From: an uncultured Dehalococcoidia bacterium
GTDB lineage: Bacteria; Chloroflexota; Dehalococcoidia; Lucifugimonadales; UBA3495
Assembly (NCBI GenBank): GCA_951813535.1
Contig: OX638345.1
Location: 2,899,477-2,963,476, forward strand
Direction of reading: 5' to 3'
Length of the DNA: 64,000 bases
The translations under genes were made by a program, and so were the position numbers. Below, piece after piece: positions 18,603 through 25,490 of this stretch. The notes beneath the pieces were generated by a model that saw only the letters and a list, made by a program, of their open reading frames with translations, searched no databases and was not told the origin of the DNA. How positions within the stretch are numbered: the first letter of the stretch is position 1; each line of letters starts with the position of its first letter.

Positions 18603-19034
18603 TCACTCAGATTGCTCATGGGTGGGAGCCGGGGTGACGGGACCGGTTTCGATTTCCGTTTCATTAACCACGCGGCGAAGAACGTCGTTGATGCGAGCCC
18701 TCCAATCCCCGCCCTTGCGGCGGAAGTGCGTAACGACATCCTGGTCAAGGCTGAGCTCTACGTTCACACGGTTCTGGCCGTTGGTTCGGGCCGCGAGGTA
18801 TGCATTGACCAGGTCAGGGTCGACTTCGATCGCCGGACGCGCCTGGGCGAATTCTGCTTCGATAGGCACCCAACAGTCAGGGTCGGTTGCGATGATAACG
18901 TGGATGGCGACTTGCTCGCCGTAAATGGCCGTGACTTCGGAGAATGTCTTGCCGGCGATTTCATCATAGGGGGGCAATGCGGCGAATTCTTCGGGAGTAA
19001 GGCCGCTGGGTTCATAGCCTTCAGCCATATTCAT
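18603..19034 (-). CDS. brnA: BrnA-type antitoxin (DUF4415) with extended N-terminus
   Basis: C-terminal VNVELSLDQDVVTHFRRKGGDWRARINDVLRRVV matches the DUF4415/BrnA signature (..RLD.DV..WF...G.GYQTRIN..LR). Overlaps brnT by 14 nt. Confidence 0.7.
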   Translation of the reverse strand: MNMAEGYEPSGLTPEEFAALPPYDEIAGKTFSEVTAIYGEQVAIHVIIATDPDCWVPIEAEFAQARPAIEVDPDLVNAYLAARTNGQNRVNVELSLDQDVVTHFRRKGGDWRARINDVLRRVVNETEIETGPVTPAPTHEQSE

Positions 19035-19293
19035 TCACCTCTATTTGGCTGGCGGGACGGAAGCTGATTATGCGCCTGATTTCACCCATTGCACCGCGCC
19101 GAGTGTACACGACAACATACAACCGGGCGTCGAAATAACCGTAAGCCACCCAGCGGGACTCTTCATATCGGTTGCTCGGAACGATGATGGCCGTATCCCG
19201 CTCAAACAGAGATCCTGCATCAGCAAAATCCAGTTCGCGTCCGTCCAGGGTTTCACGGCGTTTATCTTCGTCCCACTCGTATCGGATATTCAT
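19021..19293 (-). CDS. brnT: BrnT-type ribonuclease toxin (DUF497)
   Basis: 90 aa. N-terminal YEWDEDKRRETL and C-terminal IRRIISFRPASQIE match the DUF497 pattern (FEWD..K...N..KHG ... IRIISAR.A...E). Confidence 0.8.
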   Translation of the reverse strand: MNIRYEWDEDKRRETLDGRELDFADAGSLFERDTAIIVPSNRYEESRWVAYGYFDARLYVVVYTRRGAMGEIRRIISFRPASQIEVNEYG

Positions 19294-20677: not shown

Positions 20678-20687
20678 GTGGCTAACG
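20678..20687. repeat. target-site duplication (left copy) GTGGCTAACG
   Basis: An identical 10-mer directly abuts both IS ends (20678..20687 and 21918..21927). Confidence 0.85.
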
Positions 20688-21917
20688 CAGGGCAATCGCA
20701 TTTCACAGGGATAGGACTTTGAGCAGGTAATCGAAGTCCCATCCGGCTTTTTTGCGTTTGGCCTTGATGCCGACTTTGGCGGTGCGTTCCTGCTTGAGCA
20801 GGTTCAGTGCCAAGTGCCTGATCACTGCCAGGTTCTGGTCAGCGTGGCCGGTCCTCACTCGGCTGTGGTCCTCGTCGAAGGCCACGTCCAGCACCCAGTG
20901 CAGGCTGTTCTCGATGCTCCAGTGGCTTCTGGCCGATGCCAGCAGCGTGGCCGCGTCCGCCGGATAGCTGCAGATGTAGTAGCGGGTATCGGTTGGGGCA
21001 TCGGTGGTAGCGTCCCGTCGGTAGCTGACCCGGGCCACCGCGCCCAGGCTGGCCCATTGGCGCTGGGGGTCCACGTAGGTCAGTTCCTCTGGGTCGGTGA
21101 TCGCCCAGCACTCCCGCCGTTCCAGCCGGCCGTGGTCTTTGCCCACCTGTTGGTGGTGGCTGTAAGCCACACCATCCCATCCTACACGCTCACAGCAGGC
21201 GAACAGGTCCTTGATGTTCTGGTGCAACTCTCCCTGGTTGGCCTTCACCGCCAGCAGGTAGTCAGCGCCCCCCTGCACCACCTGCTGGGCGATGTTCCTC
21301 TGGCAGCCCATGGCGTCTATCGTCACCAGGCAACCCTTCAGTTCCAACACCTTGAGCAGTTCCGGTATCGCCGTGATCTCGTTGGAATGGGCCTCGGTGC
21401 GGGTCTGTCCCAACACCATCCGGTTCTCGGTGGCCCACGCGCTGACCATATGCAGCGCACCTCGGCCGTTGGCCCGGTCATGGCAACCCCGCAGGGTCTT
21501 GCCATCTATCGCCACCACCTCACCCTGGGCCAGTTCACTCACCGAGCGTACCCAGTCCATGAAACAGGCCGAAAACTGCTCCGGGTCCAGCAGACCAAAC
21601 ACCCGACCAAAGGTGTCGTGGGAGGGTATGCCGTTTGGCAACTGCAAGAAGCGGCGGAACCAATCCTCCTTGGCTTTACCGAACTCCTCAATCTCCACCC
21701 AGTTGTCGGCGCAACAGATCACCGCGCAAAGAGTGATGACGATGATGTCCAGCAACTCATGCCTTTTGGCATGTCCGGTTCTCGGGTCTTCCAGCATTCC
21801 AAACCGTTCGGCAATCGAAAGCGGTACATTGTCCATCTCCACCACGCACCTCAGACAATCAGATCGTGGCAACACTTTAGCCCGATTTTTAGAATAATCT
21901 GAAATGCGATTGCCCTG
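20688..21917 (-). mobile_element. ISAs1-family insertion sequence, apparently intact (1230 bp)
   Basis: Perfect 18-bp terminal inverted repeats: CAGGGCAATCGCATTTCA (20688..20705) and its reverse complement (21900..21917). Contains a single transposase ORF and is flanked by a 10-bp direct repeat. Confidence 0.85.
20703..21836 (-). CDS. ISAs1 family transposase (H-repeat-associated type)
   Basis: N-terminus MDNVPLSIAERFGMLEDPRTGHAKRHELLDIIVITLCAVICCADNWVEIEEFG is the DDE_Tnp_1-associated signature, followed by AIDGKTLRG...ITIDAMGCQ...HWSIENSLHWVLDVAFDED. The listed ORF extends to 21875, but ATG 21836 fits family N-termini better. Confidence 0.85.
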   Translation of the reverse strand: MDNVPLSIAERFGMLEDPRTGHAKRHELLDIIVITLCAVICCADNWVEIEEFGKAKEDWFRRFLQLPNGIPSHDTFGRVFGLLDPEQFSACFMDWVRSVSELAQGEVVAIDGKTLRGCHDRANGRGALHMVSAWATENRMVLGQTRTEAHSNEITAIPELLKVLELKGCLVTIDAMGCQRNIAQQVVQGGADYLLAVKANQGELHQNIKDLFACCERVGWDGVAYSHHQQVGKDHGRLERRECWAITDPEELTYVDPQRQWASLGAVARVSYRRDATTDAPTDTRYYICSYPADAATLLASARSHWSIENSLHWVLDVAFDEDHSRVRTGHADQNLAVIRHLALNLLKQERTAKVGIKAKRKKAGWDFDYLLKVLSL

Positions 21918-21927
21918 GTGGCTAACG
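21918..21927. repeat. target-site duplication (right copy) GTGGCTAACG
   Basis: See the left copy. Confidence 0.85.
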
Positions 21928-22063
21928 GTACTGATGGTTGGACTACCATCGGGGAGCGCCAGGGCGGGTGAGCACGAGGATTCGTGGAGGACAGAACGAT
22001 CCCGAGTGAACCCACAGGCGCGTCGGGGAGGCTGGATCGTGCATGTAACAAAATTGAAACGTT

Positions 22064-22136
22064 TTCACAATTTGTTCACTAATATCGGGCCTGTTTTCAC
22101 TTGCTTTTCACAGTTGGTTGCTACGCTGTGTTCACA
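22064..22136 (+). promoter_or_regulatory. array A of five phased TTCAC(A/T) direct repeats
   Basis: TTCAC starts at 22064, 22075, 22096, 22107 and 22131, all in the same orientation, with spacings of 11, 21, 11 and 24 nt. It sits about 95 nt upstream of a small ORF with an AAGGAG RBS. Confidence 0.6.
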
Positions 22137-22229
22137 GATGCGAACGAGGCCAAGCTGGGTTGGCAACACCGAAACGGGAAGCCTCCCCGACCGTCCGCAG
22201 AAAAATCCACACAAGGAGACGACCGCATC

Positions 22230-22349
22230 ATGGGCGCAGCGAAAATCAAAATCGGCAGACTCACCTGGAAGGAATTCGGAATGGTCGCAGTGGCCGGCGC
22301 CTTGCCCGTTGCCGTCCTGGGGCCGGCGCTGATGATCATTGCGCAGTGA
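22230..22349 (+). CDS. 39-aa single-TM peptide (hypothetical)
   Basis: ATG 22230 has AAGGAG 11 nt upstream. Product is MGAAKIKIGRLTWKEFGMVAVAGALPVAVLGPALMIIAQ, a basic N-terminus plus one hydrophobic helix. In frame with the tail of listed ORF 22101..22349. Confidence 0.45.
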   Translation: MGAAKIKIGRLTWKEFGMVAVAGALPVAVLGPALMIIAQ

Positions 22350-23149
22350 CAACAACGACGCGGCGCGACACCAGGAGGGACATCGTCAAATAGCGGTGGA
22401 AGAGGTCCAGATCGGATCAGAAACCATGTCAAACCGGTGGCTCTGCAGGCGCCATAATTCGCCAGGAACAGGGTCTACCATACACCAGCGACGGGCGTGA
22501 ATAAGCGCAGCAGCATCAACACAAGCCAAGTGCTCCGAAACACATAGCGACGGGGCGGGGATAATCAAACAATTCGCATAGGCGCGCCGCAACTGGGGCC
22601 AGTGGGTGATAATGCTCGCTGGCCTCTTCTTCTGTCTTGGAAACCCGAGTATCTCTGCCAAGCCATGGCGAGCCTGGCGTCGTGGAGGTAAGGGCGTACG
22701 CTTTCGAGAACAAGACCGAAATCAGTGCCAGTCAACCCGTACGTCGGCAATGCAACGGGCCGGAGGATACGACGACCTCCGGCCTACCTGCCGGTCGGAT
22801 CCTCCAAGATGAAAAATACGCTGTGCATCCGGCCGCGACCTCCGTGCGAATATCCGCGGCCCGAGGCCGAGAGGTGCGGCGCTCCCCTTCATCCCCGCCG
22901 CGCTGACCAAGTCTGCTCTCCCGTCGGGATTGCCGAGTTTCGCTTGCAATGACAGTTCGAATTCAATGGGTACGGATATGCGTACTTTCGGCGGCAGAGC
23001 CCGGCAGCGTCGCGGACCGCAATGGAGCGGGGCCCAACTATGGGGTCGGAATGTGCGAGTCCAACGTGTCGAACGTTCGTCTTTTTTGCCAGCCAAGACG
23101 CGTGGGCTGACACCATTCTCCAGAGAAACAAGCGCAGTAAATGGGGCAG

Positions 23150-23219
23150 TTCACGTCCCGCAATCGGCCTTTCACGTTATGTTCATACATTTACGCCTGA
23201 TTTTCACTCAGTTTTCACA
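23150..23219 (+). promoter_or_regulatory. array B of five phased TTCAC/TTCAT direct repeats (paralog of array A)
   Basis: Motif starts at 23150, 23171, 23182 (TTCAT), 23203 and 23214, with spacings of 21, 11, 21 and 11 nt. It aligns without indels to array A from the first pair through TTTTCACARTTGRTTGMTAC. Confidence 0.6.
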
Positions 23220-23561
23220 ATTGATTGATACCATCAATATGTGGACGGGGACGAGGCAAGGGTTCAGTCAGGCGGGTGAGTGCGGTATCGCCGAGCCTCG
23301 TCCATTTTCCCAAACGCGGGACTAGCTACCTTCGCGACGATCCTCACCAGCAATTACTGAACGTCAACCCGAGCCGACAGAGGCACGCACACACGGCAAT
23401 GGCCATCCGAGCAGCAGCGCCGCAGCATGATCTCGCCACCACTCGAACGGGCGAAAACTCTTGCAGAACCAGGCAATATCAACAAACGTGAAATACACGA
23501 TTCATACAAGTGTCATTGGGAACGCCACCAGCCTGGCATCATAATTCATCGAGGAGGAACC

Positions 23562-23858
23562 ATGTTTGCAGCGAATGCGCATAAGGGAAGACCGAGAGCG
23601 CCGGTGCCCAGAGGACGCAAGGGGCTTTGGGTGTTGGCGCTGGCCGCGATTGTATTGGTCGCCCTGATGGGCCTGATGATGGCATCAGCAGACCAGACCC
23701 CCTACGGGGCGACGCAAGTATGGTCTGCCGAACCCACAGGAGCGGTCAACACCGAAACATCATCCATGTCCGTGAGTCACCTCATCGGCGGCCACCCTTA
23801 CGGCCAGGATGCGGGAAGCCTTCCGGCGGCTACGCTCATACACGTGGGAGCGCAGTGA
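23562..23858 (+). CDS. 98-aa signal-anchored small protein (hypothetical)
   Basis: ATG 23562 has GAGGAGG 5 nt upstream. Product MFAANAHKGRPRAPVPRGRKGLWVLALAAIVLVALMGLMMA... has a basic N-terminus, one TM helix and a polar tail. In frame with listed ORF 23427..23858. Confidence 0.55.
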   Translation: MFAANAHKGRPRAPVPRGRKGLWVLALAAIVLVALMGLMMASADQTPYGATQVWSAEPTGAVNTETSSMSVSHLIGGHPYGQDAGSLPAATLIHVGAQ

Positions 23859-24317
23859 GGCATCGCCGAATGGATCGTACCGGCGACCGTAAGTTGGCAT
23901 CGCTCCACAGGAGGTGCGCGGCAATATCCACTCAATTCGACCTGAATCACCAAGCCGGAGCCAATAACTTTCGAGGGTTCAATCGGATCTACGGCGGGCT
24001 TTGCCCAGGCAACACACGCCGGTTTGGAGAGAGGGGTGCTAAGCGGACCGACGGCATGGCCATATTGGCGGAGACAATAACTCCTCTTCAGGCCTGAGGT
24101 CCGTGGCGTCGCAAGACGCAGCCGCAAATTGCCATTCGAATTCGGCGCATAAGCCGACCGGGGCCAGCGGGCAATGACGCTCGTTGGCCCCATTGCTTGT
24201 CGAAAGTCGTTACCGGCACGGTGGACCCGGCGGCACGGCGACCGGCGTCGGGCCGTGCTCGATTGCGGCGCCAATACCCGTTTGGGACGAGGCGCAAAGG
24301 ACGAAGCGGAAAACGGG

Positions 24318-25490
24318 CTAACGGTGCCGAGCTCGGGGGTGTTCCATTTGCGACGCCCTTTCCGCCGTCACACTGACGAACCGCTCGGGACGGTATGGGC
24401 CGAGCACCGCGTCGGCACGGGCGCCGTCGCAGATCTCCAGAGCAGCCAGTTGGCTCAACGCCGGCGCGAGCGTGACGCCGCTGTGGGTGAGGGCGACGTA
24501 GAGATTGGAGGCTTCTCGGGCAAAGCCCATGACCGGGTAGCCGTCCAGCGGCATGGGTCTCCAGCCAACGGGCACGGGCACGGCCGCGGCCCCTTTCAAT
24601 CCAGGCAGGTGCTGGCACGCCCTGGCCAGAAGGTCATCGGCGTGGGCCTGGCTGTCGTCTTCGGCGAGGCTTTCCTGATCGCCCTCGCCGATCATGAGGC
24701 GACCGTCCGGACACTGCCGCAGGTGAATCTCGCGGCGGCCGTCTTCCAGTGGAGGGGCGTACACGATTGGTACGTGGTGCAGCAGAGGCGGCATCGGGCT
24801 GGTGCGAATAACGACGCCGGGGCTCTCGGCCTGTGGCACGTGGACGCCGGCCATAGCTGCCACGGCCGTGGTGGCAGTGCCGGCAGCGACGACCACGACG
24901 TCGGCGTCGATGTCGCCGTTGGTAGTCTGGACCGCGCTGACGCGATCCTGGGAGTCTTTGCGCAGCCCCGTGACTTCCACACCGGTAACGACAGAGGCTT
25001 CCAACTCGCGCAGCCGGTTGAGGCAGGCGCCAACCACCATCTGCGGTTCGACTTGCCCTTCGTTTTCGCTGTATTCCGCGGCGGCTACCGGGCCGATGCG
25101 CAGGGCCGGTTCCAGTTCCTGGAGTTCCTCGCGGGAGACCAGGCGGGTGGGATAGCCCCAGGATTGGAGTTGCTGCACCCGGGCGACCAGAGCCTGGGCG
25201 GCATCCGGGTCGGATTCCCAGGACACCTTGCCACCCCAGCGCAGGTCCACGTCTTCGCCCAGGGCTTGGGCGAACCGTGGCCACATCTCCAGCGAGCGGC
25301 GGTTGAGGTTGTGGTAGCCGACCGGTTCCTTGGCGCCAGCGTTGATCCAGGCGAAGCTGTGGCTGGAGGCCCCACCGCCGGGTTGGCCCCGGTCAATGAT
25401 CGTGACGCGGATGCCCCGGGAGGCCACGCGCCAGGCGATGGAAGCTCCAACGATGCCGGCGCCGATGACTACAACGTGTCTTGCGTTCAT
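24318..25490 (-). CDS. FAD-dependent oxidoreductase (DAO/glycine-sarcosine oxidase-like)
   Basis: N-terminal HVVVIGAGIVGASIAWRVASRG dinucleotide fold. ATG 25490 lies 1 nt after the MoxR stop. Confidence 0.8.
   Translation of the reverse strand: MNARHVVVIGAGIVGASIAWRVASRGIRVTIIDRGQPGGGASSHSFAWINAGAKEPVGYHNLNRRSLEMWPRFAQALGEDVDLRWGGKVSWESDPDAAQALVARVQQLQSWGYPTRLVSREELQELEPALRIGPVAAAEYSENEGQVEPQMVVGACLNRLRELEASVVTGVEVTGLRKDSQDRVSAVQTTNGDIDADVVVVAAGTATTAVAAMAGVHVPQAESPGVVIRTSPMPPLLHHVPIVYAPPLEDGRREIHLRQCPDGRLMIGEGDQESLAEDDSQAHADDLLARACQHLPGLKGAAAVPVPVGWRPMPLDGYPVMGFAREASNLYVALTHSGVTLAPALSQLAALEICDGARADAVLGPYRPERFVSVTAERASQMEHPRARHR

Follow-up and report, generated by a model that had tools for sequence, protein, structure and literature searches.

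We analysed a stretch of 64,000 nucleotides (nt) from an uncultured Dehalococcoidia bacterium (contig OX638345.1, positions 2,899,477 to 2,963,476; hereafter the window; GC content ~63 %) and concentrated on a 2.4-kb gap, which we call the island, between a CoA-transferase gene and a gene for a DAO-type FAD-oxidoreductase. The island carries two short open reading frames (ORFs) on the + strand, one encoding 39 amino acids (aa) at 22230..22349 and one encoding 98 aa at 23562..23858. Each lies downstream, on the same strand, of a module of short repeats, as an initial annotation of this DNA had described, and we refer to the two ORFs with their flanking elements as cassettes 1 and 2. That annotation had offered two interpretations: a type I toxin-like locus or a pair of co-regulated membrane or secreted peptides. 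In a type I toxin-antitoxin locus, the 39-aa and perhaps the 98-aa product would be membrane-damaging toxins checked by an unannotated antisense or divergent small RNA (sRNA).

The island is conserved within a clade of SAR202/Dehalococcoidia genomes. DNA records of the loci that carry homologues of the 98-aa ORF are titled SAR202 cluster or Dehalococcoidia metagenome-assembled genomes (MAGs). In every locus compared, the gap holding both ORFs measures 1.6-2.4 kb and occupies the same place; one flank is a family III CoA-transferase gene, and the other is the DAO-type FAD oxidoreductase gene followed by genes for MoxR-like AAA, Ham1, and MFS proteins, all of them encoded on the opposite strand. 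Gene order around the island is identical across all loci, and both pairs of Shine-Dalgarno (SD) sequence and ATG codon are kept in 14 syntenic genomes. A 39-aa peptide with a single transmembrane (TM) segment, encoded in a long intergenic island at a distance from the genes on either side, fits a type I toxin locus; that the locus is single-copy and syntenic argues against one.

Homologues of the 98-aa ORF number 26, at 58-71 % identity, and nearly all are 98 aa long. For both ORFs we shuffled alignment columns and scored coding-type substitutions. In this test, the 98-aa ORF gave z = 10.7 in frame versus -3.7 and -1.3 out of frame, and four controls taken from untranslated regions (UTRs) stayed within |z| < 1.6. 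Its ratio of nonsynonymous to synonymous substitution rates (dN/dS) is 0.26. A profile search of 1.84 billion proteins returned 6 clusters at 50 % identity, all of them the 98-aa family itself; some cluster members are 69 aa long and retain the TM helix and an LMIASKDQP...WSAE motif and nothing else, and the family as a whole ranges from 69 to 104 aa. No Pfam, NCBIfam, or PADLOC family was found for the protein, the NCBIfam and PADLOC matches being sub-threshold and confined to TM segments. The start codon, ATG 23562, follows the SD sequence GAGGAGG (23551..23557) after a spacer of 4 nt (5 nt if counted from GAGGAG), in agreement with the initial annotation. Together, conservation and coding signal indicate that the 98-aa ORF is a real gene.

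A basic N-terminus and a TM helix at residues ~19-43 open the 98-aa product; next come the juxtamembrane motif SADQTPYGATQVWSAEP and a linker that varies, whereas the C-terminus, YGQDxGSLPAATLIHVGA(R/Q), is again conserved. The motif SADQTPYGATQVWSAEP is an invariant block directly after the helix, and the best 19-aa Kyte-Doolittle window scores 2.71. An AlphaFold2 model with a mean pLDDT (predicted local distance difference test score) of 58 is confident for helix 19-43 only, and its tail is predicted to be disordered. We predict a single-pass, N-in membrane protein whose juxtamembrane motif is extracytoplasmic and conserved and whose tail is disordered, or else a secreted protein, which we consider below.

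The 39-aa ORF starts at ATG 22230, 11 nt past the SD sequence AAGGAG (22213..22218), again as initially read, and its product is MGAAKIKIGRLTWKEFGMVAVAGALPVAVLGPALMIIAQ. A basic N-terminal part of 16 aa precedes a 23-aa hydrophobic segment rich in Ala, Val, Leu, Gly, and Pro, with a best 19-aa Kyte-Doolittle window of 2.32. The first 16 residues carry a net charge of +3 in the 39-aa and 98-aa products alike, which bears out the earlier description of a basic stretch and one hydrophobic segment in both. In each of the 14 genomes examined, an ORF of 35-40 codons starts at the equivalent position; the start is preceded at 8-12 nt by a purine-rich SD of the GGAG/GGGG type in 12 of the 12 loci listed and also in L013, and SD and start codon are kept in 13 of 14 loci. 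A database of 5.8 billion sequences holds 20 called homologues, including this genome's own copy (P0041), and the family counts 33 members in total, all 35-40 aa long, with the consensus MxAxKNRTGRLTWRELALVAVVGALPVAILGPALxIISxG. Its hydrophobic GALPVAILGPAL core is kept at the amino-acid level, and full-length members all end in ...PALxII(A/S)(Q/R)(G). The coding test gave z = 3.5 in frame versus -3.1 and -0.1 off frame. The 39-aa ORF is hence likely to be a genuine gene for a small membrane protein, weakly constrained and with a single predicted TM helix.

The list of open reading frames for the window stretches both genes upstream, to 143 aa (23427-23858) and 82 aa (22101-22349). Since these extensions have no SD and are not kept as coding sequence (the leader is variable, and the 5' UTR control gave |z| < 1), and since called homologues are 98 and 35-40 aa long, we take the short forms to be the real genes. 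The initial annotation also remarked that an SD is missing from most ORFs nearby, which broadly holds: SD matches of 5 nt or more precede 11 of 40 genes with Pfam support, a count taken at longest-ORF starts, whose assignment is uncertain. A strong SD with an ATG after it is infrequent in the window, with 9 such sites on the + strand and 7 on the - strand; this rarity and the conservation in 14 syntenic genomes set the two SD-ATG pairs above chance.

To judge the toxin interpretation at the protein level, we took the defining and search features of type I toxins from the literature (PMC2887945, PMC3919570, and PMC6563280). The 39-aa peptide, with its TM segment, falls under the size limit of about 60-70 aa; the 98-aa protein exceeds it, and its extracytoplasmic tail is conserved. 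A C-terminal cluster of polar, charged, or aromatic residues is typical of type I toxins (PMC2887945), whereas the charges of the 39-aa peptide lie in its N-terminal 16 residues and its end is hydrophobic. A Pfam search with 13 members of the 39-aa family returned no toxin family even at E <= 10, and NCBIfam and PADLOC returned none.

The repeat modules upstream of the two genes share one architecture. Module P1 spans 22045..22127 on the + strand and contains four 7-bp boxes, TTTTCAC (22062-22068), TGTTCAC (22073-22079), TTTTCAC (22094-22100), and TTTTCAC (22105-22111). Module P2 (23169..23234, + strand) likewise has four, CTTTCAC (23169-23175), TGTTCAT (23180-23186), TTTTCAC (23201-23207), and TTTTCAC (23212-23218). 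In both modules the boxes start at 0, 11, 32, and 43, that is, in an 11-bp phase with two pairs three helical turns apart, and the gap from the last box to a TAN3T -10 element is exactly 10 nt. This -10-like element reads TACGCT in P1 (22122-22127, + strand; TAATCT in most relatives) and TACCAT in P2 (23229-23234, + strand; TAACAT in relatives). Neither module has a usable -35 element, and no sigma70-type -35/-10 pair was called there. Transcription is predicted to start near 22134-22136 for unit 1 and near 23241-23243 for unit 2.

Across 11 genomes the modules leave a clear footprint, with conservation of 0.90-1.00 in the boxes (0.92-1.00 in P2) versus 0.65-0.71 in the gap between the pairs, which in P1 spans 14 nt and scores 0.65. 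The pattern TTTTCAC-N5-TTTCAC, with at most one mismatch, has three matches in the 64 kb, all of them in the two modules, against 0.01 expected. We therefore read the repeat modules as activator-type promoters with the architecture of a Pho box, the site of OmpR/PhoB-type regulators, and infer the factor from that architecture; we claim no link of these promoters to phosphate. A strongly conserved element, TGTAACAAATTTGAAACA, at 22045-22061, lies directly upstream of P1 box 1 and is not matched by anything at P2; it might serve a second factor or represent two more phased boxes in degenerate form. An origin of replication with DnaA boxes was considered for TTTTCACA and rejected: the 9-mer does not fit, there is no skew switch, and the placement with respect to the -10 element points to a promoter. 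Metagenomes scanned for the box pair TTTTCACTTGGTTTTCACA gave 18 loci, of which 2 were the same island (bin87-type lineage) and the rest unrelated low-GC sequences, and thus yielded no further regulon members.

Downstream of P1, the predicted transcript begins with a leader hairpin (22139..22199, + strand) that has no U-tract; RNAalifold on 11 sequences found 14 pairs and, at 2 of these, compensatory double changes. Past the 39-aa ORF lies a structured RNA domain at 22360..22594 on the + strand, in which a long-range closing helix (22360-22367/22581-22588) surrounds about six hairpins. An alignment of 13 genomes with 79 % column identity was folded by RNAalifold into 58 pairs in 10 helices. 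With this fold, 94.5 % of cells are paired versus 35-40 % when the structure is slid along the alignment, and 11 pairs are changed on both sides versus a shuffle mean of 5.2, a number reached in 0 of 500 shuffles. The domain contains 6-8 AUA(A/G) motifs, located in loops or single strands, against ~1.5 expected (12 of 13 sequences). It is followed by an intrinsic terminator (22595-22626, in an element set at 22595..22636, + strand) with a 14-bp stem, a UGAUAA loop, a U/C-rich tail, and covariation. No Rfam match was found for the island (21000-25000) at E <= 1 or for the whole window at gathering score. Because no promoter lies between the 39-aa ORF and the domain, the two would be co-transcribed. 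The covariation indicates that the ~280-nt domain downstream of the ORF is a structured RNA under its own selection, which would make transcript 1 (~500 nt) probably dual-function.

AUA(A/G) may be a repeated protein-binding or pairing motif. In cassette 2 it also occurs in the 3' UTR, where three hairpins have it in conserved loops, and 5-6 nt before the SD of the 98-aa gene, where the sister cassette has the same conserved (C)AUAA; the sites noted are 22360-22626, 23541-23545, 24073-24078, and 24147-24152. A role of the 39-aa ORF as a leader peptide in attenuation was considered and rejected, given that no gene follows before the terminator.

A long structured mRNA with a strong SD is a further feature that the type I toxin interpretation can point to, and it predicts an antisense signal. 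We found no conserved minus-strand promoter or terminator over the 39-aa ORF or its leader. Sigma70-like minus-strand hits do occur in two relatives (L001 and L008), which would favor an antisense RNA, but they lie in an AU-rich loop (AUAAUU) and fail to recur in the window or other relatives: the window has no -35 element there, and in many relatives A2 is missing from the -10 element. We treated these hits as chance. The consensus fold pairs the SD of the 39-aa ORF weakly with the U/C tail, a second point in favor of a masked toxin mRNA, but full-length predicted folds give it an accessibility that is average and inconsistent.

Unit 2 is predicted to open with a leader hairpin at 23249-23303, with a U-tract to 23308 (+ strand; GGACGAGGC...GCCUCGUCC). 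Its predicted minimum free energy is -27.4 kcal/mol, though with a z of only -1.28; 11 genomes retain the hairpin along with a UUUU(U) tail and show compensatory replacement of G-C by A-U pairs. A simple terminator scan missed it, as the loop is too large. It is a candidate for an intrinsic terminator or an attenuator, or else for the 3' end of a ~65-nt small RNA. Beyond the 98-aa ORF, a structured 3' UTR (24035-24159, in an element set at 24035..24200, + strand) has 48 pairs, 8 of them compensatory, in an RNAalifold consensus of 9 genomes; its hairpins are GGAG-ACAAUAA-CUCC, GGCGUC-N4-GACGC, and CGGC-GCAUAA-GCCG. An intrinsic terminator at 24160-24191 (+ strand), paralogous to that of cassette 1, closes the unit.

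We then asked how the two cassettes are related. The shared pattern M-x-A-A-x-x-x-x-G-R, from which the initial annotation had suggested common ancestry of the peptides, holds for the pair in this genome; family-wide, only M1, A3, and R10 recur. Comparison of the two family profiles by hhalign gave a probability of 0.75 %, i.e., no detectable protein paralogy. BLASTP between the products gave a sole match of 9 residues (AGALPVAVL and AGSLPAATL) at non-equivalent positions with E = 0.028, and the DNA of the 5' parts of the ORFs (120-140 nt) compared between cassettes gave z = 0.6. On these three comparisons we rejected paralogy of the two proteins. The regulatory flanks gave the opposite result: local alignment of P1 and P2 (promoter and leader start) gave z = 11.9, the terminator regions gave z = 8.4, the two terminators match at 79 % over 33 nt, and the leader hairpins are homologous, with an ACGAGGC core in common. 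An nhmmer profile of the cassette 1 3' domain matches the last 60-80 nt of the cassette 2 3' UTR (E = 7e-7) in most genomes; the cassette 1 RNA domain is present in one copy per locus. A genome-wide repeat of the repetitive extragenic palindromic (REP) kind was rejected for the terminator hairpin, which in the 64 kb is found only at the two cassette ends. Common ancestry is thus supported for the flanks and not for the peptides: since similarity is confined to promoter, 5' hairpin, and terminator, what appears to have been duplicated, or shared by design, is the regulatory shell rather than its cargo. Two cassettes alike beyond the coding region are among the features used in searches for type I toxins (PMC2887945). 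Here, though, the two ORFs are dissimilar, whereas ldr, ibs, and zor duplications have similar toxin ORFs.

Taken together, these observations favor two co-regulated transcripts for small membrane proteins, one of them possibly dual-function, under activator-type promoters, a reading to which we assign a probability of about 0.55. It takes up the second suggestion of the initial annotation, that of co-regulated membrane or secreted peptides, which is supported by conserved genes, a single predicted TM segment in each product, and near-identical, footprinted four-box promoters. In this model, the island would hold two independent + strand transcription units with one shared regulatory design. 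A single winged-helix activator encoded elsewhere, either an OmpR/PhoB-type response regulator or a protein like the Streptomyces antibiotic regulatory proteins (SARPs), would turn on both units, with the proximal repeat standing in for a -35 element 10 bp before a weak TAN3T -10 element. Unit 1 (~500 nt) would consist of the 5' hairpin, the SD, the 39/40-aa ORF, the 280-nt multi-hairpin RNA domain, and the terminator, and would yield an N-in small membrane peptide plus a functional RNA part. Unit 2 would consist of the 5' hairpin with its U-tract, a variable leader, the strong SD, the 98-aa ORF, the structured 3' UTR, and the paralogous terminator; its leader hairpin would gate expression, either as an attenuator or through release of a short RNA. 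By analogy with MgrB, both proteins would probably be envelope-located modulators of a sensor or transporter, and not toxins.

Several observations weigh against this model. First, the 64-kb window contains no two-component or SARP gene. Second, the role as modulators of a sensor or transporter is drawn from analogy, and all transcript boundaries are predictions. Third, a terminator-like hairpin and 230 non-conserved nt separate P2 from the 98-aa ORF, whose transcription from P2 is thereby presumptive. Fourth, the 98-aa gene of one Dehalococcoidia MAG (L012, 2290-4000) is interrupted by an insertion sequence (IS): it is split after codon 35 by an insert of ~1.7 kb with a 464-aa transposase-like ORF, and so either the gene is dispensable there or the MAG samples a mixed population. 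Finally, the 39-aa ORF is weakly constrained, with a dN/dS of 0.61-0.66 and nearly flat variation across codon positions. The initial annotation had proposed conservation of the reading frames as a check: both ORFs are kept in 14 loci, and a 1-nt deletion in two lineages gives the 39-aa ORF a different, frameshifted 35-aa C-terminus. L007, moreover, has ATA instead of ATG at its start. Given the frameshifted 35-aa versions and the ATA codon, the 39-aa peptide may be secondary to the RNA.

This last point leads to the first alternative, that cassette 1 is primarily a regulatory RNA in which the AUA(A/G) loops are the working parts and the 39-aa ORF is secondary or non-functional; variants include a dual-function RNA like RNAIII or SgrS, a 3'-UTR-derived sRNA like CpxQ, or a protein sponge. 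Conservation of the 3' domain equals or exceeds that of the ORF (column identity 0.82 versus 0.80), covariation supports the domain, the downstream nucleotides stay conserved where the frameshifted C-termini are tolerated, and ATA[AG], which lies at unpaired positions, is enriched 4-5 fold. In addition, dS is 0.53 in the 39-aa ORF versus 0.94 in the 98-aa ORF over the same genome set, about half, and folding predicts, within the ORF (22278-22329), a hairpin that has undergone compensatory changes. Low dS and internal hairpin suggest an RNA-level constraint that overlaps the coding sequence, and protein constraint on the ORF is weak (dN/dS ~0.6). Against an RNA with a merely vestigial ORF stand the near-universal retention of SD and start, the lengths of 35-40 aa in 33 of 33 members, the in-frame coding signal with the other frames negative, and the hydrophobic core conserved as amino acids; no target or binding partner was identified. 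This alternative overlaps our preferred explanation rather than excluding it, and we regard it as doubtful, though it survives better than the others that depart from the small-membrane-protein model.

An intermediate form deserves the same tentative standing: cassette 1 could, with a probability well short of even, be a ~500-nt activator-induced dual-function RNA that combines the 39/40-aa peptide with the 280-nt AUA(A/G)-loop domain and resembles RNAIII or CsrB. The 3' domain would then titrate an RNA-binding protein or pair with target mRNAs.

A third alternative concerns the 98-aa product, which might be cut behind ASA(43), setting free an extracellular peptide of 55 aa. A two-component system would then auto-induce both cassettes, much as in agr, where a regulatory RNA with a peptide ORF is paired with a secreted peptide. 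The basic n-region, the 20-aa h-region, and an A-S-A (A-x-A) before D44 in most members are suggestive, conservation is strongest exactly around the putative cleavage site, the tail is predicted to be disordered, and both promoters are of the response-regulator type. Yet distant homologues (P0029 and P0030) have ASK-DQ at this site, which breaks the rule of a small residue at -1, and they retain the TM segment and the motif, as expected of an uncleaved anchor. The h-region is also long for a signal peptide, and the conserved neighborhood contains no kinase, processing protease, or exporter. We consider such a peptide circuit improbable. The type I toxin-antitoxin interpretation, lastly, is unsupported and very improbable: it finds here no ORF duplication, conserved antisense signal, C-terminal polar cluster, or family match, and the supposed toxin shares its complex activator-type promoter design with a 98-aa protein that is clearly not toxin-like.

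Around and between the two cassettes, other features can be told apart from them. The spacer at 22640..23165 (strand not assigned) is not conserved, with a mean column identity of 0.56 and variable length; it measures 525 nt here and is nearly missing in L010, and the ORFs listed inside it are spurious. A 1,230-bp IS of the ISAs1 type occupies 20688-21917, ~130 nt upstream of P1, with a transposase ORF at 20703-21875 on the - strand (DDE_Tnp_1 and DDE_Tnp_1_assoc). It has perfect 18-bp terminal inverted repeats, CAGGGCAATCGCATTTCA, and is flanked by a 10-bp target duplication, GTGGCTAACG, at 20678-20687 and 21918-21927. Since this IS occurs in the window only and is missing from 14 of 14 syntenic loci, it looks recently inserted. 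At 18603-19293 (- strand), a 90-aa and a 143-aa ORF overlap; by synteny they correspond to a BrnT toxin/BrnA antitoxin pair (type II), annotated as such in L001, L002, and L015. This pair is a genuine toxin-antitoxin module adjoining the CoA-transferase gene and is unrelated to the two cassettes. No tRNA or tmRNA was found. Searching by exact sequence for the 39-aa, 98-aa, and CoA-transferase products of the window returned no record.

The elements of the island are new families of known kinds. They comprise two new lineage-restricted families of small membrane proteins (35-40 aa and 69-104 aa) and a new covariation-supported RNA domain without an Rfam counterpart; the newest part is this structured domain with its repeated AUA(A/G) loops on the transcript of the 39-aa ORF. 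To our knowledge, almost nothing is known about regulation in SAR202/Dehalococcoidia. The four-box promoters provide a concrete, searchable operator for a candidate OmpR/PhoB-type regulon in these uncultivated bacteria, and searching whole genomes for it would show which genes form the regulon and, from these, what the signal is. We also know of no earlier candidate for a dual-function RNA in Chloroflexota, which becomes relevant if the cassette 1 RNA acts in trans; if it is a dual-function RNA, it lives in an uncultivated sponge- or marine-associated SAR202 lineage and is unrelated to any Rfam family. For annotation, the island is a caution that a small hydrophobic ORF in a duplicated cassette is insufficient to call a type I toxin.

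It is instructive to compare the island with known systems. With type I toxins (Hok, Ldr, Fst, Ibs, ZorO, and TisB) it shares a hydrophobic product shorter than 60 aa (the 39-aa peptide), a long structured mRNA, and a large intergenic region with a second related cassette (PMC2887945 and PMC3919570). It differs from them in the antitoxin RNA signal, C-terminal polar cluster, duplicated ORFs, and family match that it lacks, and in a promoter predicted to be activator-dependent.

SARP activators use the same kind of site as that found in P1 and P2, namely heptad repeats. The closest parallels come from Pho boxes. PhoB binds tandem repeats placed 10 bp upstream of a TAN3T/A -10 element (PMC1906773), PhoP of M. 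tuberculosis recognizes 7-bp repeats with a 4-bp spacer (PMC4832192), and PhoP of S. coelicolor recognizes 11-nt direct-repeat units with the consensus G(G/T)TCAYYYR(G/C)G (PMC2275107). Common to these promoters and the island's are 7-bp direct repeats with a 4-bp spacer and an 11-bp phase, tandem pairs on one helix face, and a proximal repeat in place of the -35 element 10 bp upstream of a TAN3T -10 element; the island's core, TTCAC/GTTCAC, resembles the actinobacterial G(G/T)TCAY. Unlike them, the island's pairs are split by a one-site gap (starts at 0, 11, 32, and 43), TTTTCAC is not a described consensus, and there is no cognate regulator gene nearby.

RNAIII/hld and SgrS/SgrT are dual-function RNAs, and as in such RNAs the non-coding part of transcript 1 is at least as conserved as its ORF. 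The combination of a small envelope protein or peptide with a conserved, structured 3' RNA part, a promoter of the response-regulator type, and a Rho-independent terminator recalls cpxP, whose 3' UTR gives rise to CpxQ (PMC4817254). The island domain differs in being unusually large (~280 nt), in bearing AUA(A/G) in repeated loops instead of C-rich, GGA, or seed motifs, and in having no Rfam homology.

Small membrane proteins induced by two-component systems provide the model for the proposed function, SafA and MgtS being further examples beside MgrB. MgrB, a protein of 47 aa, is a feedback inhibitor of PhoQ (PMC2789325 and PMC8404706). Neither family of the island is homologous to the MgrB, SafA, or MgtS families in Pfam or NCBIfam, and the likeness is one of design only: short, single-pass, N-in proteins behind response-regulator-dependent promoters (here predicted), with conserved juxtamembrane or periplasmic residues of the kind that matter for function in the known systems (PMC2789325 and PMC8404706). 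What sets the island apart from MgrB-type proteins is that two different proteins are borne on duplicated regulatory flanks with long structured UTRs, in an uncultivated member of the Chloroflexota.

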